Origin: an uncultured Anaerolineales bacterium
GTDB lineage: Bacteria; Chloroflexota; Anaerolineae; Epilineales; JAANWY01
Direction of reading: 5' to 3'
NCBI GenBank assembly: GCA_964532665.1
Contig: CAZHMV010000002.1
Location: forward strand, 14,510 to 78,509
Length of the DNA: 64,000 nt
Both the position numbers and the translations under genes were made by a program. Positions 7,426 to 10,400 of the stretch are shown piece by piece. Positions within the stretch are counted from its first letter, which is position 1. Each line of letters opens with the position of its first letter. The notes below the pieces were generated by a model, which was not told where the DNA came from, did not search any database, and saw only the letters and a program-made list of their open reading frames with translations.

Positions 7426-10400
7426 TGTCCTGTAGGCACTGCACGGTGAGTGCATTCTCTTTCAGCGCCTGGATGCCGTTGACGGCGGCGCGGGCAGCCG
7501 ACATGGTGGTGATCAGGGGCACGCCGGCCTGAATGGCGGCCAGGCGAATGGCCAGCCCGTCGCTGTGGGACGTGGTGCCCAGCGGCGTGTTGATGATCAG
7601 GTCGATCTGGCCGGCGCGGATGGCATCCACCAGATGGGGTGAGCCTTCGCTCACCTTGTTGATAGTTCCCACGGCCATGCCAACCCGCCGCATAAAGTCG
7701 GCCGTGCCTCGGGTCGCCAGCAGCCGGAAGCCCATGCGCCCCAGGTCACGGGCGATTTTTAGCACCGTGCTTTTGTCGAAGTCGTTCACGGTGATCAACA
7801 CAGTGCCGCTCAGCGGGAGCTCGTCGCCGGCTGCCAGCTCCGCCTTGGCGAAGGCTTGCCCGAACCGCCGTGCACGCCCCATCACCTCGCCGGTCGAGCG
7901 CATCTCGGGACCCAGGCGGGCATCGACGCCGGGGAACTTGCGGAAAGGCAGGACCGCTTCCTTCACGAAAAAGCCGTCCACCTTCGGCTCCTCGGTGAAT
8001 CCGATCTCCTCCAGGGTCCGACCGGCCATCACCTGGGCCGCAATCTTCGCCAGCGGCACACCCGTTGCCTTGCTCACGAAAGGCACCGTACGCGACGCGC
8101 GCGGGTTCACTTCCAACACATACACAACGTCATCTTTGATGGCGTACTGCACGTTCATCAGCCCGACGACACCCAGCGCCTTGCCCAGCATCTGCGTGTA
8201 CTCGCGGATGATGCTCAGGTGGTACAGGCTGACCTTGTACGGCGGCAACACGCAGGCCGAATCGCCGGAGTGCACGCCGGCCTCCTCGATGTGTTGCATC
8301 ACCCCGCCGATCACGACCTGCTCCCCGTCAGCGACGGCATCCACGTCTATTTCGAAAGCGTCTTCCACGAACCTGTCGATGAGGACCGGGTGTTCGGGCG
8401 ATGCTCGCACGGCCTCCGCCATGTACCGATCCAGGTCATCTTCGCCGTACACAACCGCCATGGCCCGACCGCCCAGCACGTACGAGGGTCGCACCAACAC
8501 CGGATAGCCGATATGAGCGGCCACCTGCCGGGCCTCCACCAGCGAGCGGGCCATGCCGTGGGCCGGCTGTGGGATGCCCAGCTCGTCCAGCAACGCGCCA
8601 AACCGCTCCCGGTCCTCGGCCAGGTCGATGGCATCGGGCGATGTGCCCAGGATGGGAACGCCGGCCGCCGCAAGGTCCTGCGCCAGCTTGAGCGGGGTTT
8701 GGCCGCCAAACTGGACGATCACGCCGAACTCGGAGGAACTCGGGGGAACTCGGGGGAACTCGGGGGAACTCGGGGGAACTTCACGGGACCCAGAGGAACT
8801 CCGAGGGTGCCCAGCTCCTCCGAGTTCCTCGCTCACCACATTCAACACATCTTCCAGCGTCAGCGGCTCAAAGTACAGCCGATCCGACGTGTCATAGTCG
8901 GTGCTGACGGTTTCCGGGTTGCAGTTGACCATGATGGTCTCGAAGCCCATCTCTTCCAAAGCAAAGGCGGCGTGACAGCAGCAGTAGTCGAACTCGATAC
9001 CCTGGCCGATCCGGTTGGGGCCGCCGCCCAGGATAATGATTTTGGGCCGGCTGGTTGGGTTCGCCTCGTCTTGTGTCTCGTAGGTCGAGTAGAGATACGG
9101 TGTGCGCGCCTCGAACTCGGCGGCGCAGGTGTCAACACGATGGTAGACGGGGCGGATGTCCAGGGCATGCCGGCGCGCCCTCACTTCGCCTTCGGCACGG
9201 CCCCAGAGCTGGGCCAGTTGCTCATCCGAGAAGCCAAAGCGCTTCGCCTCGCGCAGGAGGTCAGCCGGCACCCTCTCCAGCGCGTGACCACACAACTCGC
9301 GCTCCAGCTCGACGATCTCCTCAATCTGCCACAGAAACCAGCGGTCGATGCCGGTCAACTCATGAATCTCTTTCACGGACACGCCGGCCCGCAACGCATC
9401 CCCAATCGCAAAAATCCGCTTCGGACTCGGCACCTCTAGAGCACGGGTGCGGAAGTGAGGGGGTGAGGGGGTGAGGGGGAGACAAGGAGACAGGGAGATC
9501 TTCTCCCCTTCTCCTTTTTTCCCCTCTCCCTCTTCCCCTTTTCCCCTTTTCCCCTTTTCCCCTTTTCCCCTATCCCCTCCTATGCTCTCCAGTCCACTGA
9601 CCCCAATCTCCAACGACCGCAACCCCTTCTGCAGCGCCTCCTTAAACGTTCGCCCGATGGCCATGACCTCACCCACGGAGCGCATCTGGGTGTCCAGGGT
9701 GGCCGGCACACCTGGGAACTTGGCGAAGTCCCAGCGCGGAATCTTCGCGACGACGTAGTCGATGACCGGCTCGAAGGAGGCCGGCGTTTCCCGCGTGATG
9801 TCGTTGGGGATCTCGTCCAGCGTGTAGCCAACCGCCAGCTTGGCGGCGATCTTGGCGATGGGGAACCCCGTCGCTTTGGACGCCAGGGCCGACGACCGCG
9901 ACACGCGGGGGTTCATCTCGATGACCACCATGCGCCCGGTGGCGGGATCGACGGCAAACTGGATGTTGGAGCCACCGGTCTCGACGCCCACCCGCCGGAT
10001 CACCTGGCGCGCCCAGTCCCGCATGCGCTGGTATTCCTTGTCGGTCAGGGTGAGGGCCGGCGCGACGGTGATGCTGTCGCCGGTGTGCACCCCCATGGGA
10101 TCGAGGTTCTCGATGGAGCAGACCACAACGAAGTTGTCAGCCCGATCCCGCATCACTTCCAGTTCGAACTCTTTCCACCCAATCACCGATTCTTCGATGA
10201 GCACGCGGTTGACGGGACTCTCCTTCAGCCCGCGTGCCGTGATGTCGCGGAGTTCCCGTTCATCGTGGGCGACGCCGCCGCCGGAGCCACCCAGGGTGAA
10301 GGAGGGCCGGATGATCAGGGGGTAGCCCAACTGGCCGGCCAGCCGCAGTGCCTCCTCCACCGATGCCGCGATGTCACTCTGAGGCACGTCGAGCCCGATT

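Follow-up and report, generated by a model that had tools for sequence, protein, structure and literature searches.

We analysed a 64,000-nucleotide (nt) stretch of DNA from an uncultured Anaerolineales bacterium (Chloroflexota; contig CAZHMV010000002.1), hereafter the window, and focused on a repeat tract that lies inside its carB gene. carB (positions 7418–10813, minus strand), recognized from its open reading frame (ORF) and by phmmer, encodes the large subunit of carbamoyl-phosphate synthase (1131 aa). Its best matches among proteins point to Chloroflexota (Anaerolineae/Caldilineae-like metagenome-assembled genomes). The tract occupies 9455–9581 and is, over its 127 nt, an imperfect hairpin of octamer arrays. 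The carB ORF is continuous through it, and both the frame and the downstream domains are intact.

On the plus strand, the tract reads (GTGAGGGG)x3, GAGACAAGGAGACAGGGAGA, TCT, TCTCCCCTTCTCCTTTTTTCCCCTCTCCCTCTT, (CCCCTTTT)x4.75 and ATCCCCTCCT. Tandem Repeats Finder (TRF) resolved three period-8 arrays on this strand: GTGAGGGG x3.1 with 100% matches (9455–9479), GGAGACAA x2.6 (9478–9498), and CTTTTCCC x9.2 with 80% matches (9500–9571). The first array makes up the outer left arm, and its sense reading, (CCCCTCAC)n, encodes PLTPSPPH. The inverted-repeat search placed the inner left arm of a core hairpin, GGGGAGACAAGGAGACAGGGAGA, composed of GGAGACAR units, at 9476–9498 and the inner right arm, TCTCCCCTTCTCCTTTTTTCCCC, at 9502–9524; between them stands the loop TCT (9499–9501), the centre of the palindrome AGATCT. 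A pure pyrimidine run of 73 nt, or about nine degenerate CTTTTCCC units, extends from 9499 to 9571 (run-length count and TRF) and includes 4.75 perfect CCCCTTTT units (about 9533–9570), which on the sense strand become (GGGGAAAA)n and encode 12 residues. The right arm ends in a degenerate tail, ATCCCCTCCT, at 9572–9581. No other purine or pyrimidine run in the window exceeds 19 nt. GGGGAAAAGGGG occurs four times, always within the tract, against 0.25 expected in 64 kb, and none of 100 shuffles reached four. The sequence, the TRF arrays and the shuffle test thus confirm that the tract exists as the first-pass annotation had described it, at 9455–9590. That annotation had also called the arms homopurine/homopyrimidine, which is right for the right arm, strictly homopyrimidine, and wrong for the left arm, which contains T.

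Alignment to E. coli CarB located the tract in the protein. A phmmer comparison of the window's CarB with E. coli CarB structures such as 1BXR (E = 0) fell into three collinear blocks (query 1–409, 457–661, and 696–1116 with E. coli 1–410, 426–631, and 636–1056), and the two breaks coincide exactly with two inserts. The first insert, codons 410–456 (9446–9586, minus strand), is without an E. coli counterpart: the stretch measures 47 aa here versus 15 aa in E. coli (residues 411–425), a net gain of ∼33–40 aa relative to insert-free Chloroflexi CarB. It lies at the junction of the carboxyphosphate and oligomerisation domains. Translation and alignment therefore bear out the original proposal of an in-frame insert where the first synthetase domain meets the oligomerisation domain; the residue range given for it, 405–450, has to be shifted to about 410–456. 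An intein, an intron, or a split gene was excluded, given the unbroken ORF and an insert that consists of low-complexity repeats. The second insert covers residues ∼662–695 (8726–8827, plus strand) and consists of (GAACTCGGGG)x5.5 and one inverted unit, an instance of the same phenomenon. It is translated as a 20-residue peptide.

The first tract is translated straight through in the carB frame as a 42-residue stretch, the purine-rich arm giving Gly/Glu/Lys/Arg and the pyrimidine-rich arm giving Pro/Ser/Leu/Thr, so that the expected peptide, Gly/Glu/Lys-rich and then Pro/Ser(/Leu)-rich, was indeed found. The 8-nt unit has an amino-acid period of 8 residues per 24 nt. Only two of the six frames of the tract are open, both on the sense strand; the plus strand is closed because GTGAGGGG puts TGA in all three frames. 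We built an AlphaFold2 model of CarB on 60 homologs (mean pLDDT 84.2, pTM 0.88). pLDDT fell below 50 only at residues 338–340, 414–446, and 668–692, the last two being the two inserts, and secondary structure was predicted in neither of them. The segment predicted to be disordered in the first insert, codons 414–446, corresponds to 9476–9574 (minus strand). The first insert is thus predicted to behave as a disordered interdomain loop that leaves the fold undisturbed, and we infer that the loop is exposed in the assembled enzyme. Codon adaptation is 0.48 in the insert versus 0.77 in the rest of carB, where the lowest 47-codon window scores 0.58, and the GC content of third codon positions is 0.57 in the insert versus 0.83 in the rest. 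These unadapted codons, the perfect repeat blocks, and the absence of the insert from relatives (see below) point to a recent and non-coding origin of the inserted sequence.

The arms of the tract are complementary. The core arms match over 23 nt at 83% around their 3-nt loop, and the outer arms over 18 nt at 78%. The outer blocks have diverged: GTGAGGGG and CCCCTTTT pair at five of eight positions by Watson-Crick rules and at seven of eight if G-T pairs are included. The fold energy was just 1.2–2.2 standard deviations better than that of dinucleotide shuffles (Z −1.2 to −2.2), a weak score because G-runs and C-runs pair in any order. The case for a hairpin rests on the explicit complementarity of the arms and on a shared architecture, not on energy. 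With its short loop and its 8-nt period in both arms, the carB tract belongs to the class of inverted tandem-array hairpins. The idea that the antisense strand folds better through G-U pairs was rejected (RNA, −69.7 versus −68.4 kcal/mol; DNA, −27.6 versus −29.2 kcal/mol). A known structured RNA family was likewise rejected: in Rfam, no family scored above its gathering score, and the sub-threshold matches were eukaryotic microRNA-hairpin models (best 38 bits versus 68).

The sense strand carries a canonical quadruplex motif, (G4A4)5 or (GGGGAAAA)5, at 9521–9577 (minus strand). The 64 kb contain just two canonical quadruplex motifs, one per carB insert. The motif of the second insert (8742–8776) is the only one on the plus strand of the window. 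(G4A4)4 is a standard quadruplex-forming RNA (PMC10959947), and bacterial translation can be inhibited by RNA quadruplexes (PMC10801317). In the predicted mRNA fold (minimum free energy −68 kcal/mol, with quadruplexes outside the model), the G-tracts pair with the C-rich arm, a pairing that would compete with a quadruplex. The pyrimidine tract is also a mirror repeat, so the suggestion that it can adopt H-DNA would hold as a formal capability of the sequence and only as such.

We compared the two loops with those of relatives. The closest relative, P0002 (locus L001; 87% aa and 86% nt identity), carries different DNA in both: its first loop holds a decamer array, (GGGAGAACTC)x4–5, read as GNSGELGRTRENSGEL, and its second loop a hairpin of 21-nt units unrelated to the window's (GAACTCGGGG)n. 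Two CarB proteins of 71% identity (P0004 and P0005, 1069 aa) are insert-free at both sites. The tract is thus not conserved base for base: another array stands at the site in the 87% relative and none in the 71% relatives. CarB does not depend on the first insert, because close relatives are without it or carry something else there.

We surveyed loop lengths in 120 Chloroflexi CarB proteins. The linker between the invariant E402 and R466 measures 63 aa in the window, the second longest in a range of 19–87 aa (median 30.5). The second site, with a median of 19.5 aa, spans 16–220 aa. In many long versions, a G/E/R/K/D-rich stretch is followed by a P/S/L-rich one. This order is the signature of a translated hairpin with a purine arm and a pyrimidine arm, and the long inserts that we inspected as DNA were all hairpins of tandem units (4/4). 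One Chloroflexi homolog (P0100, locus L125) contains at the first site the exact 23-mer GGGGGAGACAAGGAGACAGGGAG, which is the core of the window's insert. Judged from these sequences, the two CarB loops have served repeatedly as landing or tolerance sites, with a fast turnover of content. Two proteins, P0091 and P0081, have inserts of 192–220 aa at the second loop, with a (GQGSGVR)n-like start and a PDPRPLTP-like end; their sequence suggests that a hairpin element of great length, with a large loop, is translated within these CarB proteins.

Differences of the same kind were seen around carB. Upstream of the gene, the window has a (CAGTGAT)n hairpin (10857–10929) and L001 an unrelated (GGAGATT)n hairpin (460–590). 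Arrays seem to have been replaced in place between the window and its closest relative, and non-homologous arrays at orthologous positions hint at site preference or in-place turnover. In a sister lineage (P0009, P0013, and P0014; 67–69% identity), carB and argG are fused into one ORF of 1522–1590 aa with a short, non-repetitive linker, unlike the window, where a heptamer hairpin separates the two genes.

Does the tract change in length? A JGI metagenome contig matches the window base for base over 7396 nt that contain the tract, and the exact protein is also found in an NCBI record, although the two records may derive from one sample and so are perhaps not independent. Changes of one or two units (8 or 16 nt) would frameshift carB, and only 24-nt steps are viable. 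One- or two-unit slips in carB would be lethal or auxotrophic. The only comparable length data that we obtained come from in-frame arrays of a related unit, (GGAGACAR)n, whose length was unchanged between contig pairs 98.8–100% identical and even between relatives 81–84% identical. The notion of an essential gene with a hypermutable tract was therefore not borne out: the two assemblies are identical, and related arrays are stable in length, a weak negative at the level of assembled contigs. A metagenome scan for strain variants, made with a 26-nt carB flank shared by the window and its closest relative, gave no match. At 90%, this CarB is the only member of its cluster; in the P0003 cluster, members of 1101 and 1106 aa differ at the N-terminus and not in the loops. 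The copy number of the carB–argG intergenic heptamer hairpin differs between the window and L001 (∼14% nt divergence). Array turnover is thus fast on an evolutionary time scale and not visibly so on a population time scale.

The carB tract is not the only array of its kind in the window. Hairpins of the form (unit)n-loop-(reverse-complement unit)n occur at 7323–7423, 10857–10929, 15346–15413, 22631–22678, 28528–28683, 41624–41705, 48137–48210, and 52897–53000. TRF and the complementarity of the arms support the first-pass annotation in its view that this logic is common to the other repeat families of the window. The heptamer units are CAGTRAT/ATYACTG, GCGTCTT/AAGACGC, TACGCAA/TTGCGTA, and GGAGATT/AATCTCC, and there is also the decamer GAACTCGGGG. 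Of these intergenic spots and two more (14489–14565 and 40516–40571), nearly all hold a heptamer array followed by its reverse-complement array. Units with stops on both strands (the CAGTGAT family) are intergenic in the window or merely touch gene ends; arrays wholly inside genes are stop-free in the sense orientation. The carB tract obeys this rule, since only its sense-strand frames are open.

Several further arrays of the window touch genes. The carB stop codon TAA (7418–7420) and the last sense codon, CAG, lie within the first heptamer (CAGTAAC) of the downstream array 7378–7423. The array thus supplies the stop of carB, as has been reported for TAACTGA repeats that overlap gene ends. argJ (4586–5854, minus strand) contains an in-frame array of the decamer family at 4773–4816, read as GGGELGGTQGNSEELGG; the argJ array is orthologous in the 87% relative (L001, 5360–6652), where it has gained or kept an extra 8 aa (24 nt). 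Between argG and argJ (6006–6035) lies another, degenerate member of the decamer family of the carB and argJ inserts, CTGAGTTCCT x2.9. Inside the gene 25111–25851 (minus strand), (GGATGAG)x3 is found at 25401–25422, and the stop-free strand reads LIPHLLIQ.

We wondered whether the same units occur in other genomes. A scan of a species-representative genome collection for (GGGGAAAA)n of at least 2.5 units found at least 120 contigs. The matches listed came from Acidobacteriota, Nostocales, Desulfobaccales, Planctomycetota, and two Anaerolineae, among others, and some were perfect inverted arrays (L039 and L048). Within genes, the array was read in frame between the two cofactor domains of a molybdopterin oxidoreductase, inside domain II of MutS, and in a family-B polymerase (PolB) in which both array arms are translated, as GEKVKRLEGEKG... 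plus an 11-residue peptide. (GGAGACAR)n was present in at least 120 metagenome contigs, and many of these copies form intergenic hairpins. An inverted (YTGTCTCC)n partner accompanied 31 of the 120 matches listed for this unit, and ∼40% of those listed lay within spanning ORFs of at least 250 aa; Mfd, MutS2, and a P-type ATPase were found to contain (GGAGACAR)n in frame at interdomain positions. The 20-mer GGAGACAAGGAGACAGGGAG of the inner left arm, present as a single copy in the window, recurs in at least 120 metagenome contigs, and (GTGAGGGG)3 arrays recur outside this genome as well. In-frame octamer arrays between Pfam domains were noted at six loci of unrelated bacteria (L241, L193, L151, L046, L081, and L087). 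The peptide GDKETGRQGD and one other 10-residue signature are possible flags for translated repeat DNA. In the literature searched, we found no papers describing these octamer arrays as a bacterial repeat family. The carB tract is one instance of a genome-wide, cross-phylum repeat habit and not a special device.

Taken together, these results suggest that the tract is a lineage-specific, near-neutral simple-repeat insertion, an inverted tandem array, in the permissive linker between the carboxyphosphate and oligomerisation domains of CarB. We assign this reading a probability of about 0.7. The element would consist of a GGAGACAR-type core hairpin with (GTGAGGGG)3 on one arm and (CCCCTTTT)4.75 on the other, and would stem from the same genome-wide process that has placed hairpins of the form (unit)n-loop-(reverse-complement unit)n throughout the intergenic regions. 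Selection would act as a mere filter, letting pass copies whose unit is free of sense stops, whose total length is divisible by three, and whose site is a surface loop. The perfect blocks would be recent expansions through replication slippage, in three-unit (24-nt) steps that keep the frame: (GTGAGGGG)x3 could represent one such step, and 4.75 units would be compatible with 1.75 + 3. Slippage combined with intrastrand template switching at a quasi-palindrome would yield the symmetry of the arms. We lean towards a spread of pre-existing units over the in situ growth of a seed, because many unrelated genomes contain these octamer units. For the cell, the tract is most likely close to neutral overall; its costs may include a hairpin that is hard to unwind, a possible mRNA quadruplex, and a latent risk of frameshifts.

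Several points weigh against an insertion of this kind. We found no empty-site allele of this very lineage, so that the insertion event and its exact ends are putative. The inverted-repeat search, whose result also bears on a possible miniature inverted-repeat transposable element (MITE), revealed no target-site duplication and no clear terminal repeat: the sole outer inverted pair is 16 nt long and 75% complementary (9438–9453 and 9573–9588), and the sole flanking direct repeat (9400–9419 and 9601–9620, 75%) is chance-like. When up to 3 mismatches were allowed, the octamer units still turned up in the 64-kb window only in the carB tract, and no donor is known. Neutrality is assumed, and a quadruplex-capable (G4A4)5 in the coding strand of an essential gene could affect expression. 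Finally, the window and its 87% relative hold different arrays at matching positions, in both loops and upstream of carB, a pattern not obviously expected from random insertion.

A rival reading, which we consider less likely, is a purely local origin: a variable, purine-rich linker would have grown in situ by slippage and template switching, and its likeness to arrays elsewhere would reflect convergence on stop-free, hydrophilic, self-pairing units. The linker is indeed variable and often Gly/Glu/Arg-rich in relatives without obvious arrays, slippage makes perfect blocks, any genome would favour units whose every frame gives benign residues, and the missing target-site duplication and donor copy fit as well. 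However, the exact alternating GGAGACAA/GGAGACAG unit occurs in at least 120 contigs, many of them with intergenic hairpins, and coding constraint cannot drive convergence in intergenic hairpins; this unit therefore counts against local growth, as do the 23-mer shared with the carB loop of a distant Chloroflexi (P0100) and the non-homologous arrays at orthologous positions in the closest relative. Those same replacements could instead be the signature of something more active. The GGAGACAR, GGGGAAAA, and GTGAGGGG arrays might constitute undescribed cross-phylum "octamer hairpin arrays" that are copied or replaced at preferred sites, namely existing hairpins and interdomain loops, with a hairpin-targeting single-strand transposase or templated conversion as candidates; the in-place swaps at the two carB loops and in the carB upstream region would then be its mark. 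We regard this proposal as speculative and rather unlikely.

Could the tract serve the cell? A hairpin, an RNA G-quadruplex, or H-DNA might tune carB expression, for example by pausing the ribosome at the domain boundary, or the charged linker might alter oligomerisation or allostery. The exact position of the insert at that boundary, the confinement of the window's only two canonical quadruplex motifs to the two carB inserts, and the published behaviour of (G4A4)4 RNA and of quadruplexes in translation (PMC10959947; PMC10801317) would fit such a role. Yet the 87% relative already differs in both the sequence and the length of the insert, relatives of 71% identity are without it, its codon usage is unadapted, and the predicted fold pairs its G-tracts with the C-rich arm downstream; moreover, inserts in other proteins show that the structural tolerance of interdomain loops explains the location equally well. 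We judge a function of this sort improbable. Still less probable is a contingency (phase-variable) tract, in which 8-nt slippage would switch carB by frameshift or make the gene a mutational hot spot. The 4.75 perfect CCCCTTTT units and three perfect GTGAGGGG units, a unit length that is not a multiple of three, and the length differences between orthologous arrays of the window and the 87% relative (24 nt in argJ; the carB–argG hairpin) speak for it. But carB belongs to core biosynthesis, and most contingency loci known so far are surface or restriction genes; both assemblies that contain carB are identical; the in-frame arrays of related units were unchanged at both levels of identity; like arrays sit in many housekeeping genes, which is unlike a switch; and five 8-mer copies are short for high slippage. 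As for an artefact, simple repeats are error-prone in short-read metagenome assemblies, and the source is a metagenome-assembled genome, so an assembler might have created or mis-sized the tract. This is hardly credible given the identical 7396-nt stretch in the JGI contig and the NCBI record, a frame kept through 127 nt with just two of six frames open, and analogous inserts at the same loops in dozens of independently assembled relatives.

For carB itself, the tract is of little consequence, and the enzyme almost certainly works with a floppy extra loop. The consequences lie elsewhere. In the annotation of such genomes, low-complexity stretches that pass from Gly/Glu/Lys to Pro/Ser/Leu in conserved proteins are translated repeat hairpins and not domains. 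A few 8-nt units that are found in many phyla, in frame between the domains of proteins such as MutS, Mfd, PolB, and CarB, provide a natural map of permissive sites and a tractable case of non-coding simple repeats turning into protein sequence. The tract also raises the questions of how a bacterium copes with a strong quadruplex or hairpin motif in an essential mRNA, and why unrelated arrays stand at exactly the same positions in closely related genomes. Were an active, site-preferring copying process to be true, it would be a routine source of disordered linkers in housekeeping proteins and would merit a dedicated study.

The carB tract can be compared with several known repeat systems. Like contingency loci (PMC12721329; PMC8262952), it is an in-frame array of non-triplet repeats in which a change of one unit causes a frameshift; it differs from them in having no observed copy-number polymorphism, a core biosynthetic host gene, and a short array. 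In Borgs (PMC9879509), recent and fast-evolving in-ORF tandem repeats likewise add low-complexity segments that are predicted to be disordered. The Borg units, however, are divisible by three, direct, and carried by an archaeal extrachromosomal element, whereas the carB unit is 8 nt long, is paired with an inverted arm, and resides on a bacterial chromosome, so the tract is not of the Borg type.

Repeats of 7–8 nt resemble the tract more in their building blocks. The cyanobacterial STRR heptamers, the TAACTGA repeats of Beggiatoaceae and cyanobacteria (PMC4679880), and the GGGNATC repeats of Xanthomonas and Nostoc (PMC4692102) are also scattered tandem arrays, mostly intergenic, with units shared between distant phyla. 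For TAACTGA, it has been argued that the stop codons in the unit govern its genic distribution (PMC4679880), and the window's heptamers CAGTGAT and ACTGATA resemble that unit, but as inverted pairs. The G-rich GGGNATC repeats can form quadruplexes, and the carB tract shares their sequence requirement, with at least four G-tracts of at least three G and short loops (PMC4692102). The arrays described in those papers are direct, with one inverted case (Beggiatoa), whereas paired inverted arrays are the rule here, and the carB octamer array lies deep inside an essential enzyme gene and not at its edge.

The Rickettsia palindromic elements (RPEs) are selfish palindromic repeats that lie in frame in protein-coding genes (PMC10969869; PMC1779305). 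The carB tract shares with them a hairpin repeat that is in frame in a conserved housekeeping gene, translated as a surface segment at a tolerant position, and lineage specific; as expected of an in-frame hairpin-repeat insertion, the conserved ORF is kept, insert-free orthologs exist, and the loop is predicted to be disordered. RPEs, however, form families of ∼100–150 bp with a conserved consensus and are confined to Rickettsia, whereas the carB tract consists of 8-nt tandem units that have no consensus beyond the unit and are shared across phyla. Membership of the RPE family proper was ruled out by comparison with its description, on the basis of the octamer units, the Chloroflexota host, and the lack of a second copy in 64 kb. 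By analogy, then, the carB tract seems to work like the RPEs without being one of them.

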